From: an archaeon
GTDB taxonomy: Archaea > Iainarchaeota > Iainarchaeia > Iainarchaeales > CSSED10-239
Direction: 5' to 3'
Length of the DNA: 9,212 bases
Assembly: GCA_035387745.1 (NCBI GenBank)
Contig: DAOOON010000024.1
Coordinates: forward strand, 1 to 9,212
The notes below the pieces were generated by a model that was not told where the DNA came from, made no database searches, and saw only the letters and a list, made by a program, of their open reading frames with translations. Positions 1 to 9,212 of this stretch are shown here, piece after piece. How positions within the stretch are numbered: position 1 is the first letter of the stretch; every line of letters starts with the position of its first letter. The position numbers and the translations under genes were made by a program.

Positions 1-3000
1 TTTTCTACTTCAATAAATGGATCTTCCATGTAAAGGGTTGCTGATTGTACGTTTATTTTTAAGTTCTTGTAGATGGTGGTTATTGGTGCATTATTGCTGT
101 TTAAGATTGAAACTTTTACTGGTATAAAATACCCTCCAGGAGTTTCTGGCTTTTTAATACCTGCAACAAGAGAGCTTTCTCCAAAATTAAAACTTAATTC
201 GTTTTCATTAAAGCCACTAAGATTGTTGTATTTTATATCTCCACAACCTTCAAAGGCATTTGGATTTGTTTCAATATCTTCACAGAAATTTAATCTAAAT
301 CTTCCAAGATCTGCACAGTTGTTCTTTACTGTGAGTTCTTTTACATCATAAGCATTTGTTTCTTTAGTAATAACAAACATGTCGTTTATCTTCTTACTAC
401 CATCATAGAAATCAATACAGTCTTGTATCTTTCTTATTGCTATGTTTGTTGTAAATGCTACGTCTTTTGTGGTATTTACATATTTTAGACCGTCGTTAGT
501 CTTAACTTGGCCATTAATGTAAATCTTTGTTTCTACATCTCCAAATTTCTTATCAAGAGAATAATAGGTAAGAACTGCACGATGTTCTCCTGGAGCTAAA
601 TTTTTTAATATTGTTGTGTAACTGCCTTCTGAAAGAGTTATGGTTTTTCCATCAACCATTAAATTATAACTACCAAAAATATCTTTAGAATTAACAATCT
701 TTGCTCTTATTGTGTCAAGAGCTAAACTTTGTTCGTCATTTCCTTTGACTTTACAATTATTAAATATATCAAAGCTAAAAGACACAGAATCATTACTGCT
801 TACAACTTGCTTCCAAGGATTATTTGCGCCTTGTATTACTAAACAATCATCTTCTTCTACGCCTTCGCCAACAGAGATCTTTAGGCTTATTGGAATATTA
901 AATGGATATTCTGATTCTGAGTTGTCTACAGAAACATAACCTATAATGTTACCAGTAATATTTAAAGTTTGAGTTAGCTCTTCTGCATCCTGAGAAGTTG
1001 CAATCTTTATTCTTAGATTTTCTTCACCGTTTGCTGGTATTACAATATTACCAACTTGGCTATTTAGAGATTGCTGTAATTTTGAAAGATTTAGGTAATT
1101 AGAATATCTAAAGCTAAAGCTATTGTCTTTAAATGGCTTTAATCTTAACGGATAATCTGTGTTATTTACTATTGTTAAAACCCTTTCTGTACCGTCAGGA
1201 TTTGCCTTGTTAATGTTAATTGTAAATGGCGTGTTGTCTGTTATTTTTGTATTATCCTGTTTTAAAGAAAGAATATTTTGTTCTACCGTAAATTCTACTG
1301 GCTCAGCATAATATCCGCTTTTATCAATATTAATAATTATTCTTTCGCCCATATTAAGAGATGGCATAGGTATTACTGCTTTACCATAATCGTTTGTTCT
1401 GATTGTTCCACTTGTTATCTTTATCTGTTGATTATTTGCTCTTCTTTGATAAATATTAACAAGAGCGCCAGCTACTGGTAAGCCGGACTCATCTAAAGAA
1501 ACAATTGTAAGATCAAATGGCTTATTTGGAACGATATTTTTTGGCTCATAATTAATAGTAAAAGGATATTGCTGAGATACATTAAAAGTTATAAACTCAT
1601 TATAAACAACAGATTGATTAGAAATAATCTTGTTCTGGAATCTGGAAGTTCCAAGAACTGCTGGCTTAATGTTTGTGTTAACATCAATTTTATCATAAAC
1701 ATTTATTTGTAAAGAATTTAGATATTCTGACGTAAATGGAATCTTGTTTCTTAACTGGTTTCCTGAAGACTCCCTAGCATTAAATCTGCCACCAGAAATA
1801 TTATAGCTAATAATATCAATTGCACTAGCAAGCATTTCTGTTGTATTTTCAACATTTGCTATTGATAGTCTGTTGTTATTGTAAACATTTGATTTTGCAT
1901 TAGTTAAAACATACTTTAGATTATATGCTTTATTTACAACTAGATTATTAATTTCTGCTAAATCATAAACAATATCTTCCTCAATATCTACATACTGGCC
2001 AGATAAACAAAAAGTCTCTGAACAGATTTCTGCAGTATCAATATAATATACTTTTTGATTTATTAAATCGTCTAATATTGGTGGAATAGTTGTAAACACA
2101 GAATAATAAATTGGTGCTGCTTGGCCCCTGTATGCTTGAACTGTTCCAACTGGAACTAATATTTCATAAACACCAACAGAAGCATTTACAAACTTTGCAT
2201 CAATTGCTTTTGCGTGAATGTCTGGTGTCACTATTGTTAAATTTTTATTACTATAATAACTAATATTTGCCTTTGAATCATACATTGTTCTTATATATAC
2301 TATATCCTCTTCTGCGGTTTCTTTATCTCCTGCTAAGAACCTCAAGCCAATATTTCCTGCTGTTGGATTGATTAGTCTAAACTTAAAATAGAACTTTGAA
2401 TTTTGAGTTAAATACTCTACTTTTTGATTTTGCTCATTAAACAGACCAACAAAGTCTGCTGTAAGAAGACTAACTGTTCCGGTTCTTATTAATTTTATGT
2501 CTTTGTTGATTGTTTCTCCACTAATTATTGGTATTAATTCTGTATAATAATCATAATATCCTTCTTTTGAAATCTTTGCATAAAGTATCTTGTCTGCTTT
2601 TATAGTTTTAGCATACTCTCCGTTCTGTGCTGCTTGGTCTGTTCCAATCTCTTCGCCTAATTGATTATATAATTTAATGCTTGCAAAGCTTATTGTTTCT
2701 TCATTTATGTTTTTAATATTAAATCTTATAGTTCCAGTTCCAACATTTATTGTCATTGGCAGATTTGTATCTGCTGGGGGTGTGTGAGTGAATTTTTGAG
2801 AAGAAGAAACTACATTTGTTTTTCTTAGTTTTATGAAATATCTGCCTTGAGCTATACTTTCAAAACTGACTTTCCCAGATTCATCAGTAACTAAAGAATC
2901 ATATCTTGTGTCCTGGAATTCGTTGTCTCCATTATAGATAATTAAAGTTGCACCAATTACTGGAAGGTTTTCTTCATCAATGACTGTAACATTAATATCT

Positions 3001-4292
3001 GAAACATTACTTACTGTTTCTTTTTCTAAATTTATAAGATAGCTGTTTGTATTTGGAGTAATCTCTCTAGTGGCTGCAAGATAGCCTGGGGCTCTAACTG
3101 TCAATGAATATTCTTTTGAAACATCTGTTCTAAATGAAATACTAGAACCTTCATAATTTTTAGTATCAACTGTTTGTAAACTGCCATTAGCATCAGTTAT
3201 CAATAATACTTGTGCTAAATCAGTAGAATCAAATTCTATACCAGTATCTAGATCTTTAACAATTACAGTTATGTCTCTTGTTTCTATTGTTGTATCGGTA
3301 TCTCCCGGATTTCCTTGCCCATTAACTGCTGGCATATCAATATTTATTTGTGTTTCTGTGTCTTTTGTTATAGTAAAAGTGCTTTCTGTGGATTCATATC
3401 TTAAGGAATCGTCTGTTGCAACAACTTTGTATTCTCCAATCTCAATATTAGCAAAAGATTTTGAACCCATTGTTGTTTGACCAGAAAAAACAGGATTAAT
3501 TCCGTCTTCTATTGTATATATCCTTAAAGTAATTCCATCAAGATAATTTGTGCCACTTTTTACTCTTATTGTTGCTCTACCTGTTCCTGTTACTGCGGCT
3601 TTTGGTGGAACATTTACAATGCCTGTTGCCTGATTTATTGGAATATTGCTACCAGAATAACTTGTACCAATTGCTGTTGCAACCATAGTTGTACAAGATA
3701 CTGGAACATCAAAGTTAGCTGTCCCGTTTGTTACTGTTGAAGAGGTTGGATTAATTGTTGTTCCATCTTGGCAAGTAATTGTTACATTTAGATTTTCAGA
3801 TATTGGTTGGCCATTTGATCCTACAAAAGTTAATATCTTTGATTGCGTACTTGGTAAATTAAAAATCAATACTGTAAAATTCTGTCTAGTCTTACTTAAA
3901 TCAATATCTGCTTCAAAATATTTATATCCTGCTTTATCAACAACAACAGAATAATTTCCAAACTTATTTAGTTCTAAAGAAAATTGACCATTATTCCCGG
4001 TTCTATAATTTTGAGTAAGGTCATTGCCATTATCTTTTAATTGAAACTCAAAATTTCTTAAGATTTCTCCACCGTCGTCTGCAAGTCCGATTGTAAATAG
4101 TATAGTTTGTGTGTTTTCTCCTGGTAGCCCAAATGGTTTAAATATAAGCAATAAAGCAACTATTATAATAATTATAAACAAAAAAAAAGAAGCTAATGGA
4201 TGTATTTTGTCAATTGGTTTTGTTAACAATTTGATTGGTATTCTGTTGTTTATTTTATCTAAAAAGCCTTGGTATTTTAAAGCAAATGACAT
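1..4292 (-). CDS. Giant membrane-anchored surface protein with tandem carboxypeptidase-regulatory-like beta-sandwich repeats; 3' end runs off the window (>=1430 aa)
   Basis: Hand reverse-complement translation in the frame of the ATG at 4292-4290 is open for 1430 consecutive sense codons down to nt 3, with no TAA/TAG/TGA. An in-frame TGA at 4301-4299 bounds the 5' end. It is absent from the ORF track, presumably because no stop codon lies inside the window. N-terminus: MSFALKYQGFLDKINNRIPIKLLTKPIDKIHPLASFFLFIIIIIVALLLIFKPFGLPGENTQ. Last residues in the window: ...NLKINVQSATLYMEDPFIEVE. A weak SD-like GGATGTGA lies at 4306-4299. An alternative TTG start at 4229 is possible but has no SD. Confidence 0.85.
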   Translation of the reverse strand, partial: MSFALKYQGFLDKINNRIPIKLLTKPIDKIHPLASFFLFIIIIIVALLLIFKPFGLPGENTQTILFTIGLADDGGEILRNFEFQLKDNGNDLTQNYRTGNNGQFSLELNKFGNYSVVVDKAGYKYFEADIDLSKTRQNFTVLIFNLPSTQSKILTFVGSNGQPISENLNVTITCQDGTTINPTSSTVTNGTANFDVPVSCTTMVATAIGTSYSGSNIPINQATGIVNVPPKAAVTGTGRATIRVKSGTNYLDGITLRIYTIEDGINPVFSGQTTMGSKSFANIEIGEYKVVATDDSLRYESTESTFTITKDTETQINIDMPAVNGQGNPGDTDTTIETRDITVIVKDLDTGIEFDSTDLAQVLLITDANGSLQTVDTKNYEGSSISFRTDVSKEYSLTVRAPGYLAATREITPNTNSYLINLEKETVSNVSDINVTVIDEENLPVIGATLIIYNGDNEFQDTRYDSLVTDESGKVSFESIAQGRYFIKLRKTNVVSSSQKFTHTPPADTNLPMTINVGTGTIRFNIKNINEETISFASIKLYNQLGEEIGTDQAAQNGEYAKTIKADKILYAKISKEGYYDYYTELIPIISGETINKDIKLIRTGTVSLLTADFVGLFNEQNQKVEYLTQNSKFYFKFRLINPTAGNIGLRFLAGDKETAEEDIVYIRTMYDSKANISYYSNKNLTIVTPDIHAKAIDAKFVNASVGVYEILVPVGTVQAYRGQAAPIYYSVFTTIPPILDDLINQKVYYIDTAEICSETFCLSGQYVDIEEDIVYDLAEINNLVVNKAYNLKYVLTNAKSNVYNNNRLSIANVENTTEMLASAIDIISYNISGGRFNARESSGNQLRNKIPFTSEYLNSLQINVYDKIDVNTNIKPAVLGTSRFQNKIISNQSVVYNEFITFNVSQQYPFTINYEPKNIVPNKPFDLTIVSLDESGLPVAGALVNIYQRRANNQQIKITSGTIRTNDYGKAVIPMPSLNMGERIIINIDKSGYYAEPVEFTVEQNILSLKQDNTKITDNTPFTININKANPDGTERVLTIVNNTDYPLRLKPFKDNSFSFRYSNYLNLSKLQQSLNSQVGNIVIPANGEENLRIKIATSQDAEELTQTLNITGNIIGYVSVDNSESEYPFNIPISLKISVGEGVEEDDCLVIQGANNPWKQVVSSNDSVSFSFDIFNNCKVKGNDEQSLALDTIRAKIVNSKDIFGSYNLMVDGKTITLSEGSYTTILKNLAPGEHRAVLTYYSLDKKFGDVETKIYINGQVKTNDGLKYVNTTKDVAFTTNIAIRKIQDCIDFYDGSKKINDMFVITKETNAYDVKELTVKNNCADLGRFRLNFCEDIETNPNAFEGCGDIKYNNLSGFNENELSFNFGESSLVAGIKKPETPGGYFIPVKVSILNSNNAPITTIYKNLKINVQSATLYMEDPFIEVE
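1275..1520 (-). repeat. Seventh CarboxypepD_reg-like module, separated from the first six by a 320-aa insert
   Basis: PFDLTIVSLDESGLPVAGALVNIYQRRANNQQIKITSGTIRTNDYGKAVIPMPSLNMGERIIINIDKSGYYAEPVEFTVEQ shows the same D..G.PV.GA.V / T...G / K.GY pattern. Confidence 0.6.
2481..4106 (-). repeat. Six consecutive ~80-87 aa beta-sandwich modules (protein-level tandem repeat, CarboxypepD_reg-like)
   Basis: Approximate module boundaries are 3861-4106, 3603-3842, 3330-3581, 3021-3278, 2742-3002 and 2481-2735. Module 5 is the clearest: SDINVTVIDEENLPVIGATLIIYNGDNEFQDTRYDSLVTDESGKVSFESIAQGRYFIKLRK. It fits the family pattern i.V.V.D..g.Pv.GA.v ... TD..G.f.f..l..G.Y.l.v.k.GY. Module 1 is TILFTIGLADDGGEILRNFEFQLKDNGNDLTQNYRTGNNGQFSLELNKFGNYSVVVDKAGYKYFEADIDL. 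The assignment is by motif recognition only; no HMM was run. Confidence 0.6.
4140..4193 (-). other. Signal-anchor / transmembrane helix of the giant protein (aa 34-51, ASFFLFIIIIIVALLLIF)
   Basis: An 18-residue uncharged hydrophobic stretch. It follows a Lys/Arg-containing 33-aa N-region and is followed by KPFGLPGEN. The positive-inside rule predicts N-in, with the bulk of the protein outside. Confidence 0.7.
4180..4188 (-). repeat. T9 homopolymer on the coding strand (A9 on + strand) within codons 35-38 (TCT TTT TTT TTG)
   Basis: Counted directly: c4179, a4180-a4188, g4189 on the + strand. Confidence 0.95.
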
Positions 4293-4330
4293 TATCTTTC
4301 ACATCCGTAAATATATATCTAAAATATATT

Positions 4331-4358
4331 TATAATTAAAGGAAATAAGGTATTTAAA
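4331..4358 (-). promoter_or_regulatory. Candidate promoter of the giant gene: TATA-box-like TTTAAATA (4358-4351) and TTTAATTATAAATA (4340-4327)
   Basis: Minus-strand spacer reads ...CTCACAGATACATTTAAATACCTTATTTCCTTTAATTATAAATATATTTTAGATATATATTTACGGATGTGAAAGATAATG. TTTAAATA matches the archaeal TATA consensus (TTTAWATA), 59-66 nt upstream of the ATG. The second element lies 35-48 nt upstream. In such AT-rich DNA these matches can arise by chance. Confidence 0.3.
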
Positions 4359-4370
4359 TGTATCTGTGAG

Positions 4371-4408
4371 GTTAAAAAGTTAATAAAAAAAGGGAAAGGA
4401 GAAAATAT
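4371..4408 (-). terminator. Hairpin-less oligo-T tracts immediately downstream of the 692-aa gene (possible archaeal-type termination signal)
   Basis: Minus strand after the TAA stop reads ATATTTTCTCCTTTCCCTTTTTTTATTAACTTTTTAAC, with a T7 run at 4391-4385 and a T5 run at 4378-4374. I could not find a convincing GC-rich stem-loop. Confidence 0.3.
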
Positions 4409-6487
4409 TTAAGGCTGCTTAGGATATTGCCAGGTCATACTTTCTGAACACCCGGTTTCTCCTGCTTTCCAACAGGATTCCTTTAATGGGCTTGGATATT
4501 CTCCTAAAATATAAGTATCTGCACCACTAAATATTCTGTTGTAAGGCCCATAAACAACAGCGGTGTTATATTCATTACATTTTTCTACACCGTAATAATT
4601 CTTTCCTTTATGCCTTACACAAACACATCTAAAGTGTGTTCCAACACCCGTATCAACACTATAATCTTGTATTATTGGATAGTTTTCTTTTATACAGGCT
4701 TTTCCTTTATTTGTGTAGATTATTTCATAATAATATTCATTTGTGACCACAGACCCAGTTTCACTTTCTGTTGTATCCCTTTTTGCTACGATACTTGGGA
4801 TGATTAATTGATCATCTGTATCAATATTTGCATTTAATCTTGATATTAATGATGCAATCTCGGAACCTTGATTAGGCATATTAATTAAATTATATTTTAA
4901 TTCAACACAAGTACTACAATAAAAATAATATAGTGATTTATAAACTTTTAATAATTTTTTATTATAAATGGTGTCTTTGTTTTTGAATATATCTAAGTAA
5001 AACTGAGAATAATAAATATTATTATCTGCGCCTTTATTTAAAATAAAAACGTATTTTTGAGTGTCTTTTGTTAGGCTATCTAAAGGCAAACTATAGCTGT
5101 TTGAATTAATTGTGTTAAAATTATTGACTCTTCCAAATTGATACATAGAGTTGATTGCCGAAATTATTTCGTTAGTTATTCTGTCTGCATTTTCTGAATT
5201 ATAATCAAATACTTTTATATAATTTACCTTATTAAAATACTCTGCGTCTAAATTAAAAGAAATATTAAGTGCACCATCTCCACTTACAATTTCATAAAAT
5301 TGTCCTGTATCGTCTAGAGCGGATGTAATGGATTCTGCTCCCCCGATAGAATAGGAAACAGTTTTATTTTTGTTTTCTATAATTTGGAAATCATAATCTT
5401 CGGGCAAATTAGAATTTAAAGTTACATTCAAATAATGATTAGTATAAATTATTCTTCCACTTCTTTCTTTTTTAAATAATAACACATAATAAACTCCTGA
5501 TGTTGTTGCCTCTAAATTAAAAGAATAATTTGAGCCGGTTCTTTTATCAAGATTTAGGGTGTCTTCAGAAACTAAATCTACAAACAAACTTTCTATTGAT
5601 TGTTTTATTGTATCTTTATTCTCTTCAGTAATTAAAACATAAGGATAAACAAAAAACTCGTCAAAACTTTCAGGAAGTGTAATATTAACTTGTAAATAGG
5701 TATCATCTATAGCCCAATTTATTTGACTATCTACTTTTTCAACATTATTAATTTGAGAATCTAATCCCCCAGTAGCATAATTATTTTCTGCAGTTTGATT
5801 TGATTCTTCTAAAGTCAATGCCGACAGTATGAGATTTGTATTTTCTGAATTTAGATGTTGCAAAAGGTTATTGCTAAATTTAATTTTAATAACTTCTGTA
5901 AATTCAGGATTTGCTAAATTTTCAGGGTTTTCTCCAAAATTTTCATAAGAATAAATTATAGTATATGCGACAGTATATTCTGAAAGCTCTTCTGTTTTAA
6001 TGGGAATTGATGTGACTGATGATTCTCCGGCGGTTTGTGCTCCAAAAACAACAGTGCCATCATTTCCAATATTTGTTTTTTGATTAACTACAATAGAAGA
6101 ACAAATAGTATTTTCTATTTCTAAATTGTTACAATAATCTGAAACTAATAGATTGCTATTTTGAGAATAAAAATCAGATATTAATTGATAAATTTCTGAA
6201 TCATTTTCAGTTTTAGAAAATATAAAAATAACATCTTTTGTTAAATTATTTTCTAACCAACTAGTATTGTATTTTAGATTAATTTCTGTTGGCGTTTGTC
6301 CTTCTGTTGCAGCGCCTGCAGAATTAGATTTAAAAATAGATATTTCTTCTAATATTCTCTGATTTGCTGACAGAGATTTGACTTCATAATTTTTTTCTGA
6401 AATTGCCACGGCTGAATAAACACTAGAAGAAAACACAATTAAAGATATAAAAATTATTAACAACTGAATTTTTTTATTTTTTATCAT
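4409..6487 (-). CDS. Secreted 692-aa protein of unknown function (three internal modules plus a Cys-rich C-terminal domain)
   Basis: ORF-track entry. ATG at 6487 lies 6 nt downstream of GGTG; stop is TAA at 4411-4409. N-terminus MIKNKKIQLLIIFISLIVFSSSVYS/AVAISEK is a canonical n-h-c signal peptide. I recognise no family. Confidence 0.85.
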   Translation of the reverse strand: MIKNKKIQLLIIFISLIVFSSSVYSAVAISEKNYEVKSLSANQRILEEISIFKSNSAGAATEGQTPTEINLKYNTSWLENNLTKDVIFIFSKTENDSEIYQLISDFYSQNSNLLVSDYCNNLEIENTICSSIVVNQKTNIGNDGTVVFGAQTAGESSVTSIPIKTEELSEYTVAYTIIYSYENFGENPENLANPEFTEVIKIKFSNNLLQHLNSENTNLILSALTLEESNQTAENNYATGGLDSQINNVEKVDSQINWAIDDTYLQVNITLPESFDEFFVYPYVLITEENKDTIKQSIESLFVDLVSEDTLNLDKRTGSNYSFNLEATTSGVYYVLLFKKERSGRIIYTNHYLNVTLNSNLPEDYDFQIIENKNKTVSYSIGGAESITSALDDTGQFYEIVSGDGALNISFNLDAEYFNKVNYIKVFDYNSENADRITNEIISAINSMYQFGRVNNFNTINSNSYSLPLDSLTKDTQKYVFILNKGADNNIYYSQFYLDIFKNKDTIYNKKLLKVYKSLYYFYCSTCVELKYNLINMPNQGSEIASLISRLNANIDTDDQLIIPSIVAKRDTTESETGSVVTNEYYYEIIYTNKGKACIKENYPIIQDYSVDTGVGTHFRCVCVRHKGKNYYGVEKCNEYNTAVVYGPYNRIFSGADTYILGEYPSPLKESCWKAGETGCSESMTWQYPKQP
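4412..4918 (-). other. Cys-rich C-terminal domain of the 692-aa protein (aa 524-692, 8 Cys)
   Basis: Cys at aa 524, 527 (CSTC), 598, 621, 623 (HFRCVCVRH), 637, 672 and 680. Only 2 Cys occur in the preceding 523 aa. Confidence 0.6.
4985..5695 (-). repeat. Two ~95-aa paralogous modules within the 692-aa protein (aa 265-357 and 406-501); a degenerate third copy lies at aa 40-107 (nt 6167-6370)
   Basis: Copy A: LQVNITLPESFDEFFVYPYVLITEENKDTIKQSIESLFVDL...SNYSFNLEATTSGVYYVLLFKKERSGRIIYTNHYLNVTL. Copy B: LNISFNLDAEYFNKVNYIKVFDYNSENADRITNEIISAINSM...SNSYSLPLDSLTKDTQKYVFILNKGADNNIYYSQFYLDIF. Copy 0: NQRILEEISIF...INLKYNTSWLENNLTKDVIFIFSKTENDSEIYQLISDFY. The block LTKD+[VY][IV]FI[FL].K.....IY recurs. 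Aligned by eye. Confidence 0.55.
6413..6487 (-). other. Sec-type signal peptide of the 692-aa protein (aa 1-25, predicted cleavage VYS/A)
   Basis: Basic n-region MIKNKK, hydrophobic core IQLLIIFISLIVF, and small residues at -3/-1 (V-Y-S before A). Confidence 0.7.
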
Positions 6488-6493
6488 ATTTTA

Positions 6494-6497
6494 CACC
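6494..6497 (-). promoter_or_regulatory. Shine-Dalgarno-like GGTG for the 692-aa gene
   Basis: Minus strand reads TAA CCGGTGTAAAAT ATG. GGTG is complementary to the conserved 16S 3' tail (CACCUCC), with 6 nt of spacing to the ATG. Confidence 0.5.
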
Positions 6498-6499
6498 GG

Positions 6500-6778
6500 T
6501 TAATTATTATCTACATTAATATTTTCATTAACATTTAAAGGAGTGTTTCGCACTATTATTTCTGGATTATAGTTTCTATTTACTAAGTCTTTATTTAGAT
6601 ATTGCGGACTTCTATTAATTTCTGTATTAGGGTCTTTTGCAGCATATTGATTATACATTAAGAAAATAAACGAAAATAACACAATAATTAATAAAATAAA
6701 CCAAAAAACAGAATGTTTTGATTTGTCTTTTACTTTTTTTAGTGTTATTTCTTTTTTCCTACTTTGTCTTCTATTCAT
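6500..6778 (-). CDS. Small (92 aa) single-pass membrane protein: basic N-terminus, one TM helix, Asn-rich exterior tail
   Basis: The ORF track lists 6500..6823 (107 aa) from a non-ATG start that overlaps the upstream gene by 44 nt. I prefer the ATG at 6778-6776. It lies 1 nt after the upstream TAA (TAAtATG), and AAGGA lies 5 nt upstream of it. Product: MNRRQSRKKEITLKKVKDKSKHSVFWFILLIIVLFSFIFLMYNQYAAKDPNTEINRSPQYLNKDLVNRNYNPEIIVRNTPLNVNENINVDNN. The TM helix is aa 23-42 (nt 6653-6712). Confidence 0.7.
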   Translation of the reverse strand: MNRRQSRKKEITLKKVKDKSKHSVFWFILLIIVLFSFIFLMYNQYAAKDPNTEINRSPQYLNKDLVNRNYNPEIIVRNTPLNVNENINVDNN

Positions 6779-6779
6779 A

Positions 6780-9212
6780 TTAATCCTTCTTTTCAGCAAT
6801 ATAATAGCCGCCTTGTCCAGCACTAAAATCTATATAATATTCTCCAGATTCGGTTTTTATAACAAAAATATTTGGATTATTATTTGTTTTTCCTGATAAT
6901 ATTGCTGGATTAGACCACAAATAAAAATTCTTTTCGTTGTTTGTATTTTCAAATCTGAAACAAATGTGATTATTCAATATTGAGGGATATCTTATGCCAC
7001 CAACTAATGGATTGTCTGTTGCTCCATAAATCATATAATTAAATCCGCTGGTGTTTATTTGTGCTTGATATTTCCCTAGCGTTTCTAGTTTTGAAGGCAA
7101 AGAATACAATATTTTATTATTCCTTATTTCTTTTCGTGAATCTGTATCTAATAAATTAAAATATAATTCTTTTTCAGATTCTATAAGCATCTGTGGTTTG
7201 TTGCCGCTGTCTTTAAAGTTATTAAATACAAACACACTAGTTTTTATTGGTGTTGTAAAATTATAGGTATGATCAGACGATAGATGGGTTGTAATTATTT
7301 GCGGAGTAGAATCGCTTGTTGGAATAAGACTTCTTAAAGCAATATTTGATTTTTTATAGTCTCCTCTTACAGAGTCATCATATACATCTATTGAAAATGC
7401 ATTTCCGGTTATGTCTTTAGAAGTTATTTGAAGTGGAATGATGTCTGCAAATTGGGAGTCTTGTATTTGCCCGTTTTGAGTTGTCTTTAATTCATAGATA
7501 TATCCGTCTTGAATATTTAATAAATCGGAATAATCAGAATATACTTTTATGTTGCTTGATTTTGTTTTAGCGTGTTGAGTAATACTTAAATCAAATGGAG
7601 TCTCTCCATAATCATTATATCTTGCATTAATGTTGATTGTAAAAAATAAATTATCTTTATATTCTAGGCGATTTTCGTAAATGTTTATTTTTGATTCAGA
7701 GATATCAGATAATTTTGATAATTTATAATTTGCTGTCTTTTTAGAATCATCAATATTTTCTAGATATAATAAATAAACATTTGGTTTATCTATGTTCTTT
7801 ATTTCTGAAGTGGCGTCTATATTATAAGTATAATCTTCTCTGTTACTTAAGAAGTATATTTCTGTTAGTATGTTATTTGTTTCTCCTGTTAAATCACCAA
7901 ATGGTTTAAGATTTACAAGCGATGGATTTAAAGCAACTCCGTAGTATATATCGAGACTACTTAAAAATGCTAACATATATTCCATATCTTCAAGTAAGAT
8001 TGTTTCTTTATCTGGTTTTGTAGAACTTAAAAAATTGTTTGCTGTAAAAGATATATAGGTTTTATTCGCTATATCTATTACATAGATATTTAAATCGTCA
8101 TTTAGCAGTTCTTTTGTTTTAAGTAAATACTCTTCTTTCTTAGAACTATCAAAATTAATTCTCATGATTGTTAACTTTTGTAATTCTTTTGGTACAGAAT
8201 TATTTAAATCTATCTTTAATCTGCGTATTATTTCTTTAGTATTGCTATTTCTTTCTTCTATTGGTTGTAAATTTATTTTAAACATATCGTCTTGATATTC
8301 TGAAATTAATGTTTCATCAATTACTGGGTCTACCGCTGGATTTAATCTAGAGTCTAGTATTGAGGGCCTTGCTAAATGTAGTTCTATAAGTTTAAAATCG
8401 TTTAATTTGAATTTAATGTCTTCTAATTCTATATAGTTATTATTATTTAGTTCTTTTATCTTTTTATTTAGTGCTAATCTAAATTGGTCTTGATCACAAT
8501 AGTTCTCACCATAGTCGCAGGAATTATAGTTGATCTGAGATTCTGACCATTCGAATAGTATCTTATCAAATCCATATTTCATATATTCTATTAAACCGGT
8601 CCTACCATAATCTTCATTAAATCCTTTAGGATCAAAACATAGGCCTTCGCCGTTGTATTCTACGTAATCTTCTAAATCAAACTTTGTAGTTAGTGATGAA
8701 TTCTCTCTTCCTAATAACTTATTAATATTTATTTTTATTTTGATATTTGCAACTTCTTTAGATTTATTATATATCTTAAATATCTTTGGTTCAGGGTCAT
8801 TACTTTCTGTTAAATAAAGGTCAGAAATGTTTTCAGTAGATAGTATTGTTTCTGGAGGTCCAAAGGTTATCAAACACATCGAATATTGCTTAGATCTTAA
8901 TAGTTTTAATTCAATATTATAATTTGGTTTTATAACATAACCAGAATTAACTTCTTGTAATCCTTTTGTTCTTATATTGTCTGGATTAATATTAACTAAA
9001 TTCTCTTTGCTTTCTTTTATAGTAATTAAATCCTTTATGTCTGAATAATTACCTTTAATACACCCTCTGTATTTTCCGGTTTCTTCATCTTTAATAAATG
9101 CTAAATTGCTAAAGGTATTCCCTAAATCAAGATAAACGTCCTTCTCTTGAATATCCCCTCTAAATCTTGGAACTTGTAATTTATTGAAATCTACATCAGA
9201 ATCCAATTTTAT
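6780..9212 (-). CDS. Large (>=808 aa) protein of unknown function; 5' end probably outside the window
   Basis: The ORF track starts it at a TTG at 9206, but the two upstream in-frame codons (ATA AAA, 9212-9207) are also open, so the frame reaches the window edge. Stop is TAA at 6782-6780. No signal peptide is visible in the available N-terminus, and there is no TM helix or C-terminal anchor. I recognise no family or catalytic motif. Confidence 0.8.
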   Translation of the reverse strand: MKLDSDVDFNKLQVPRFRGDIQEKDVYLDLGNTFSNLAFIKDEETGKYRGCIKGNYSDIKDLITIKESKENLVNINPDNIRTKGLQEVNSGYVIKPNYNIELKLLRSKQYSMCLITFGPPETILSTENISDLYLTESNDPEPKIFKIYNKSKEVANIKIKININKLLGRENSSLTTKFDLEDYVEYNGEGLCFDPKGFNEDYGRTGLIEYMKYGFDKILFEWSESQINYNSCDYGENYCDQDQFRLALNKKIKELNNNNYIELEDIKFKLNDFKLIELHLARPSILDSRLNPAVDPVIDETLISEYQDDMFKINLQPIEERNSNTKEIIRRLKIDLNNSVPKELQKLTIMRINFDSSKKEEYLLKTKELLNDDLNIYVIDIANKTYISFTANNFLSSTKPDKETILLEDMEYMLAFLSSLDIYYGVALNPSLVNLKPFGDLTGETNNILTEIYFLSNREDYTYNIDATSEIKNIDKPNVYLLYLENIDDSKKTANYKLSKLSDISESKINIYENRLEYKDNLFFTININARYNDYGETPFDLSITQHAKTKSSNIKVYSDYSDLLNIQDGYIYELKTTQNGQIQDSQFADIIPLQITSKDITGNAFSIDVYDDSVRGDYKKSNIALRSLIPTSDSTPQIITTHLSSDHTYNFTTPIKTSVFVFNNFKDSGNKPQMLIESEKELYFNLLDTDSRKEIRNNKILYSLPSKLETLGKYQAQINTSGFNYMIYGATDNPLVGGIRYPSILNNHICFRFENTNNEKNFYLWSNPAILSGKTNNNPNIFVIKTESGEYYIDFSAGQGGYYIAEKKD
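6784..6788 (-). promoter_or_regulatory. Shine-Dalgarno AAGGA for the 92-aa gene, embedded in the last codons of the upstream gene
   Basis: Minus strand reads GCT GAA AAG AAG GAT TAA T ATG, with AAGGA 5 nt upstream of the ATG at 6778. Confidence 0.55.

Follow-up and report, generated by a model that had tools for sequence, protein, structure and literature searches.

The 9,212-nucleotide stretch of DNA analysed here, hereafter called the window, comes from an archaeon of the phylum Iainarchaeota and carries four genes, all on the minus strand and two of them cut by the window edges. The largest of the four, which is the subject of this analysis, is a partial coding sequence at positions 3..4292 (minus strand) that runs off the left window edge; it comprises the first 1430 codons of a predicted surface-protein gene of ~2480–2500 codons. 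The initial annotation had deduced this gene from the letters alone, as a minus-strand frame of at least 1430 codons that opens with the ATG at 4292, meets no stop before the edge and is missing from the list of open reading frames (ORFs). Translation of positions 1–4292 of the window and a six-frame count bear out the frame itself: the minus strand is free of stops from 4292 to 3 over 1430 codons, and the whole open run, bounded by an in-frame TGA at 4301–4299, has 1432 codons. The five remaining frames of the same 4.3 kb contain 60, 113, 91, 140, and 163 stops, and at ~31% GC, with a stop probability of 8.4% per codon, 1430 stop-free codons would arise by chance with a probability of ~2e-55. 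The GC content of the large frame is 0.40, 0.35, and 0.18 at codon positions 1, 2, and 3, and a codon-usage model trained on two neighbouring genes of the window gives it a log-likelihood of +515 bits, against −12 to −1180 bits for the other frames. The initial annotation had named two findings that would refute the gene, an in-frame stop and a coding potential no better than that of the alternatives, and neither was made. Compared with the orthologous gene of a related locus (L005, 86% identical), differences fall 116, 79, and 412 times on the three codon positions and amount to 332 synonymous and 184 non-synonymous codon changes; as judged from sequence comparison, homologues of the gene are under purifying selection. 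The frame at 3..4292 is thus a real protein-coding gene.

The opposite view, in which this frame is open by chance or non-coding and the true genes are the five short plus-strand ORFs that are everything listed over positions 1–4335, draws on the presence of those ORFs in the list and on nothing else. It is already refuted by the chance probability, the codon-usage scores and the purifying selection given above, and its probability is negligible; the plus-strand ORFs score −12 to −1021 bits, as befits the antisense artefacts they had been taken for. By design, the list omits ORFs that run off either end of the window, and this is the whole reason why the large gene is absent from it. The claimed absence holds for that list and does not extend to public data: NCBI nr contains a 1430-aa entry, a partial hypothetical protein that is the window's own gene call, and the JGI gene call on another contig (L003) likewise yields a 1430-residue product. 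A JGI product of 1355 aa called as complete (P0001) was rejected, its stop being a spurious one created by a terminal 64-bp duplication that is an assembly artefact. This direct duplication (9416–9479/9480–9543) lies near the end of JGI contig Ga0116242_10018247 (L002).

The start of the gene was placed at the ATG at 4290..4292 (minus strand), the first possible start downstream of the TGA that lies in frame at 4299–4301. Reading upstream on the same strand, a Shine–Dalgarno-like GGATGTGA (4299..4306) lies 6 nt and an archaeal TATA-box-like TTTAAATA (4351..4358) 58 nt before the ATG, both with functions that are putative; the latter falls within a 116-nt intergenic spacer with a T-rich stretch after the stop of the upstream gene. 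This choice of start is corroborated by homologues, since P0007 and P0010 share the N-terminus MSFALKYQ and proteins at 54–87% identity begin with MSF..KYQ. At the other end, the window corresponds, with one mismatch, to bases 511–9722 of the ENA contig k141_842039 (L001), on which the large frame stays open to 1843 codons. Orthologues at 86–87% identity are 2482–2489 aa long and relatives at 54–69% identity 2476–2496 aa, so that the gene is incomplete, as had been proposed, and the window holds its 5′ 58%.

The encoded N-terminus consists of a charged tail of ~30 residues, predicted to be cytoplasmic (4194–4292, minus strand), followed by a hydrophobic segment at residues ~26–59 with a hydropathy peak of 3.4. 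We interpret the latter, which nearly all full-length family members possess, as a signal-anchor transmembrane segment (core ~residues 34–53; 4134..4193, minus strand), because a cleaved Sec signal would have a shorter N-region; this agrees with the signal anchor of the initial annotation. In the ~30–40-residue tails of those family members whose N-termini were read, a pattern recurs, aromatic..YY.F.D......P.....D...PSF, which points to a conserved signal for interaction or targeting in the cytoplasm.

The anchor is followed by six tandem prealbumin-like/CarboxypepD_reg repeats of ~90 residues each (2517..4094, minus strand; residues 67–135, 157–220, 241–311, 340–416, 434–506, and 523–592). 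In Pfam scans, CarboxypepD_reg (PF13620) reaches 80.2 bits (cutoff 32.3; 1.5e-22) and SpaA prealbumin-like (PF17802) 50.2 bits (cutoff 23.1; 3e-13), and an iterated hidden Markov model (HMM) detects the repeats with independent E-values of 5e-19 to 2e-3. SdrD_B remains below its cutoff in the window protein and exceeds it in P0010 and P0012. Farther downstream, residues 933–1006 (1275..1496, minus strand) form a seventh beta-sandwich, prealbumin/MG4/Big_1-like, with an independent E-value of 1.1e-11 in the iterated HMM; Pfam matches MG4 faintly here and Big_1 at the equivalent place in P0010. The repeated beta-sandwich modules announced by the initial annotation are therefore there, six in tandem and one apart. 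Searches of the Protein Data Bank (PDB) with the single protein and with a 33-sequence profile recovered the repeat fold only, the best match being NOMO2 at E = 0.009, and precomputed Pfam matches of close relatives in a public database include NOMO1-like. No enzyme family was found in scans of Pfam, NCBIfam, or PHROGs, and the last two gave nothing meaningful, their one match (gp105, a phage structural protein) having 16.9 bits against a cutoff of 80.

The remainder of the window product, residues 593–1430 (3..2516, minus strand), is an all-beta, family-specific core to which no Pfam family could be assigned. An AlphaFold2 model of residues 590–1430, built on a 6-sequence alignment, consists nearly entirely of strands at low confidence (mean predicted local distance difference test score, pLDDT, 48.7), and Foldseek matches it only to arrays of macroglobulin (MG)- or immunoglobulin (Ig)-like domains (C3, A2M, TEP1, and PrgB) with TM-scores of 0.1–0.2; given the low confidence of the model, we took this ranking solely as a sign of beta-sandwich arrays. 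Read literally, it would make the protein an alpha-2-macroglobulin- or complement-like protease trap composed of MG domains, since C3, TEP1, and bacterial A2M rank first with E ~1e-9 and since Pfam finds faint MG4/bMG3 matches both here and in a neighbouring 2353-aa protein. However, with such pLDDT and TM-scores a string of beta sandwiches is all that the two have in common, and the MG4 match has 10.7 bits for a cutoff of 24.7. Moreover, the CxEQ thioester motif is lacking in P0007, P0010, P0012, P0013, P0021, and P0112, five of these six being full-length, and Pfam detects no A2M-type thioester or receptor-binding domain. A protease trap is thus essentially excluded, and what the protein shares with A2M, complement C3, and TEP proteins is the array of MG-like beta sandwiches, with matches below threshold.

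Both P0007 and P0010 retain five pairs of cysteines of the window protein (174/200, 757/762, 1150/1180, 1292/1326, and 1337/1350), and P0012, only 21% identical, has counterparts of most of them at similar positions; this conservation argues for a protein that is extracellular and disulfide-bonded.

In the orthologues, two further parts follow past the end of the window sequence: a cassette of ~220–280 residues and, behind it, a conserved C-terminal region of ~700–750 residues. No part of the protein varies more than the cassette: in every pairwise comparison, sliding identity falls from 85–91% to 14–31% at ~residues 1500–1700 and then recovers, and the cassettes are ~30–35% identical at the protein level whatever the identity of their flanks. 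Between the genes of L005 and L010, which are 98% identical in DNA sequence, ~650 nt (gene nt 4391–5040) have no detectable similarity and are delimited by sharp edges. Between the window strain and L005, similarity stops at gene nt 4388 and returns at ~5209, which places the cassette ~100 nt past the left window edge (about 9820–10640 of L001; gene nt about 4390–5210). A diversity-generating retroelement was set aside as the cause, because the variation consists of replacement of the whole segment, with indels, and not of site-specific substitution.

The cassette commonly holds a hydrophobic segment of variable length that is often Gly/Ala-rich, ~100 residues long in the window strain and ~40 in P0007. 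This raises the idea of an intercellular bridge, in which the hydrophobic Gly/Ala-rich cassette, ~1500 residues away from an anchor fixed in the cell's own membrane, inserts into the membrane of a partner and tethers or breaches it. The ~100 hydrophobic residues that follow ~1450 extracellular ones in the window strain, the presence of a hydrophobic segment at the matching position in ~60% of the full-length members, and its coincidence with the most variable part of the protein all speak for such a bridge. However, ~40% of the members do without the segment, which cannot then be essential to the family, and the segment is explained more simply as a buried core or as a hairpin within the membrane of the cell itself; moreover, no host is known. 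We consider the bridge improbable.

The last ~700 residues are, in family alignments, the most conserved part of the family, with recurrent motifs (YCDATQ, F.AYLI.D.Y..DF, FY..PFDG.VG, RQGYG, FSPS.ATPV, and F.WNP) and nine cysteine columns conserved in at least 90% of the sequences, six of them invariant. For the window strain itself, the stretch of L001 that reaches residue 1843 aligns with the start of this region at 51–76% identity, and the remainder is known from orthologues alone. The C-terminal region matches no Pfam, NCBIfam, or PHROG family. Its structure was modelled on P0112 with a 33-sequence alignment, from the point at which the window ends (MDDPFLEV in the model matches MEDPFIEVE, the last residues of the window); mean pLDDT is 79 and rises to ~90 over residues 340–1024. 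Foldseek searches of the PDB and BFVD with this model returned no match to the whole region (best E 5.6e-6, TM-score over the whole query at most 0.10). At the level of domains, they returned the carbohydrate-binding modules CBM29/61/70, the FnBPA and SdrE adhesins, the EphA7 ligand-binding domain, and phage tail-fibre/receptor-binding proteins.

The initial annotation had expected a C-terminal sorting signal to be found with the stop codon. None of that kind was seen: the full-length homologues have no hydrophobic segment at their C-terminus, and apart from the N-terminal anchor such segments occur mainly at ~residues 1430–1630. The same islands encode secreted proteins of 976–984 and 501 aa that are stand-alone paralogues of the C-terminal region (hhalign probabilities of 100% and 87.6%, respectively), and because those of 976–984 aa carry signal peptides of their own, they support an extracellular location of the C-terminal region in the large protein as well, as do its nine conserved cysteine columns.

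To delimit the family, we searched with residues 600–1430 using HMMER and obtained 100 clusters at 50% identity, 60 of which were below 1e-10. Full-length members are 2300–3090 aa long and are usually matched at ~residues 750–1350; from 87% down to 21% identity they share the layout of an N-tail with signal anchor, six repeats, and the middle region. With so few clusters and so uniform a layout, the family is rare but architecturally fixed. A scan of GTDB species genomes gave 18 loci, all in archaeal metagenome-assembled genomes (MAGs). Lineage names were attached to three of the 18, two being Candidatus Iainarchaeum (one of them CP064981.1, a complete genome of 1.05 Mb) and the third carrying the label Thaumarchaeota. 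One of the orthologues at 87% identity, the NCBI hypothetical protein HRS42546.1, lies on a 428-kb contig of a MAG named "Candidatus Diapherotrites archaeon", Iainarchaeota (formerly Diapherotrites) being a phylum of the DPANN kingdom Nanobdellati. Nothing marks the gene as viral or mobile: it has no PHROG match, an exact 50-nt probe of its start is absent from IMG/VR, and its orthologues are found on 208-kb and 428-kb contigs and in the complete 1.05-Mb genome. Literature searches found no description of the family, and the product belongs to an uncharacterised family that has neither a name nor a Pfam entry.

Upstream of the large gene, the window encodes a secreted protein of 692 aa that starts with a signal peptide and has a C-terminus rich in Cys (4409..6487, minus strand), then a small single-pass membrane protein of 92 aa (6500..6778, minus strand), and finally the C-terminal 810 codons of a second gene for a large secreted protein, truncated by the window edge (6780..9212, minus strand). 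The last had been listed as 808 aa with a TTG start at 9206, a call that we rejected as a window-edge artefact because the frame is open from base 9212, the right edge. On L001 this gene encodes no fewer than 980 aa; its counterpart in L008, a locus with which the window is syntenic, encodes ~1882 aa, and the window product is 57% identical to residues 917–1881 of L008_126_1882. The 692-aa protein has no Pfam, NCBIfam, or PHROG family, and its sole detectable relative among the fetched loci is a 677-aa protein (37% identity) at the same position in L008; the possibility that it is a divergent copy of the C-terminal module was rejected, as hhalign probabilities do not exceed 1.2%. The slot directly upstream of the large gene is in fact occupied by unrelated secreted proteins depending on the strain, of 692/677-aa, 634–638-aa, or 980–982-aa types (L005, L008, L009, L010, L011, and L012). 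In more distant lineages, a further unrelated type of 519–638 aa is seen in this slot. Neither Rfam families nor tRNAs nor notable DNA repeats were found in the window.

Related loci have a conserved island layout of large genes in tandem on the same strand, whose products carry signal peptides or anchors. In aa, the island of L005 reads 2353-1553-978-2484-136-147-792-1979-178 and that of L008 1882-677-2496-706-1409+, in both cases on the same strand, and L018, L020, and L023 each contain two ~2500-aa genes around a polytopic protein of ~155–185 aa. L005 consists, over positions 1–27455, of same-strand genes with secreted or anchored products, giving an island of at least 27 kb. Beside the giant genes of distant Iainarchaeota loci we observed a conserved polytopic membrane protein of ~150–185 aa, the hydrophobic stretches of which fit ~3–4 spans (L015 5637–6104, L018 7461–8015, L020 7617–8081, L021 15351–15818, L022 6010–6468, L023 7651–8130, and L025 4687–5136); this protein may serve the island as a membrane partner or as an assembly factor.

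Also in L005, the 1553-aa gene is a stand-alone paralogue of the N-terminal part of the 2484-aa protein and the 978-aa gene one of its C-terminal part, and the large gene therefore looks like a fusion of two module types, or the pair like a fission. The idea that the hydrophobic hairpin in the middle of the protein arose in such a fusion, from a C-terminal transmembrane segment of the N-type and the signal peptide of the C-type protein, is unsupported, as the 1553-aa N-type paralogue has no clear C-terminal transmembrane segment. An annotated 97-aa gene between the 1553-aa and the C-type genes does not help this idea either, as it sits at an assembly gap of Ns. In the assembly concerned (GCA_035451465.1), a run of N at about 6400–6640 interrupts the KEPDPN tandem-repeat tail of the 1553-aa paralogue, and the 97-aa "gene" annotated after the gap is probably a gap artefact.

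Proteins of this general kind have precedents. Very large surface proteins with Ig folds have already been described from DPANN archaea, among them the SPEARE-type giants, which possess a VirB4-like ATPase (PMC10266531, PMC6642349). The Nanohaloarchaeota SPEARE giants SVXNc_0300 and BNXNv_0298 (PMC10266531, PMC6642349) have in common with the window protein a very large membrane-tethered ectodomain made mostly of Ig-like/beta-sandwich repeats, a DPANN origin, strain-specific loci, and a proposed role in cell–cell interaction. They differ in their 5000–9400 aa, in their VirB4/TraG-like ATPase domain and in their position beside secretion ATPases, whereas the window protein has ~2500 aa and another conserved C-terminal module, and its sequence has no detectable homology to theirs; Pfam and NCBIfam scans of its full-length homologues show no ATPase or other enzyme family. 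Its assignment by the initial annotation to the giant surface-protein class thus holds as regards its large size, ~2500 aa, which is nonetheless well under that of the DPANN giants of 5000–9400 aa (PMC10266531).

The surface candidates of Nanobdella aerobiophila, Nanoarchaeum equitans (NEQ300), and Micrarchaeum (bioRxiv 10.1101/2023.10.27.564410) are likewise orphan DPANN envelope proteins with Ig-like folds, some of them with lectin-like jelly-roll domains and single transmembrane anchors. These are ~900–1300 aa long, rich in N-glycosylation sequons, and often anchored C-terminally, in contrast to the N-terminal anchor, ~2500 aa, and hypervariable cassette of the window protein, in which sequons are not enriched. 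The Gram-positive stalk adhesins, namely SpaA pilins, SdrD B-repeats, and the MSCRAMMs FnBPA and SdrE, share with it a stalk of tandem beta sandwiches presenting a distal binding region, which is a prediction in the present case; they are bacterial, anchored by a C-terminal sortase/LPXTG signal, and stabilised by isopeptide bonds or Ca2+, whereas the window protein comes from an archaeon, has its signal anchor at the N-terminus, contains conserved cysteine pairs, and lacks LPXTG. The likeness to NOMO and the BOS complex, as to carboxypeptidase-regulatory (transthyretin-like) arrays, is one of repeat fold class: NOMO is a eukaryotic endoplasmic reticulum protein with a C-terminal transmembrane segment, without homology outside the repeats. 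The window protein shares the class, and not the defining domains, of the SPEARE giants or of the Ig-fold surface-layer (S-layer) candidates.

Taken together, we think that the large gene probably encodes an envelope-anchored adhesion or recognition protein rather than an enzyme, the specificity of which is tuned by replacement of the cassette and of the neighbouring gene. The uncleaved N-terminal helix would tie the protein, in type II orientation, to the membrane of the archaeon itself, and the repeats would form a disulfide-stabilised stalk that pushes the variable cassette and the C-terminal module outward from the cell. The distal part would then attach to a partner cell, to an envelope glycan, or to some other surface, and the strain-to-strain swap of cassette and neighbouring gene would tune or disguise this specificity.

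Several points weigh against such a role in adhesion or recognition. It has been argued that Iainarchaeota are possibly free-living, so that a host may not exist (PMC10936187). The middle-region model is of low confidence, as indicated above, the fold matches of the C-terminal model are all weak, and the term "binding module" conveys an impression of fold class suggested by that model and not homology. N-glycosylation sequons, at 1.40 per 100 residues versus 1.49 expected from composition, show no enrichment. Were the hydrophobic segment in mid-protein to span the membrane an odd number of times, the C-terminal part would lie in the cytoplasm, a topology that we argue against. Finally, a length of ~2300–2700 aa that is kept down to ~20% identity, together with several paralogues per locus, would fit a structural component of the envelope equally well.

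This last point leads to the main rival explanation, which is that the protein is a structural, S-layer-like or S-layer-anchoring scaffold of Iainarchaeota, whose beta-sandwich stalk sets the spacing of a pseudo-periplasm while the C-terminal module and the paralogues of the island form the lattice. Besides its fixed length and architecture, the seemingly lineage-wide distribution of the family and the occurrence of several paralogous large secreted proteins in one conserved island point that way, as does the fact that candidate DPANN S-layer proteins are also Ig-fold-rich orphans (bioRxiv 10.1101/2023.10.27.564410). However, exchange of the cassette between 98%-identical strains and the swap of the neighbouring gene are more typical of specificity determinants. 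In addition, full-length members have no C-terminal transmembrane segment or PGF-CTERM-like tail, sequons are not enriched in the window protein, and 2500 aa is far above the ~1000 aa of the Nanobdella S-layer candidate (bioRxiv 10.1101/2023.10.27.564410). We therefore regard a scaffold as rather unlikely.

The adhesion or recognition protein that we favour is unsurprising in kind, large Ig-fold surface proteins being already known from DPANN archaea. As regards annotation, an ORF list of the type used here silently loses genes that are open at an edge, and the largest of the four genes of the window was invisible in it. The window belongs to a conserved island of large secreted proteins that extends over at least 27 kb; the lineage is represented here by one complete genome, of 1.05 Mb. 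To our knowledge, Iainarchaeota are a DPANN phylum without a cultured member, and their lifestyle is disputed. The unannotated and well-predicted C-terminal region of ~700 residues and the exchanged cassette, both outside the window, provide handles on a possible attachment to partners and on the evolution of specificity. A bolder proposal, to which we give little chance, is a tether between two membranes, with a stalk of ~1450 residues, the cassette lodged in the partner membrane, a C-terminal module gripping the partner envelope, and cassette swaps setting the host range. If true, it would make the island an attachment or feeding apparatus of a DPANN lineage that is debated as free-living.

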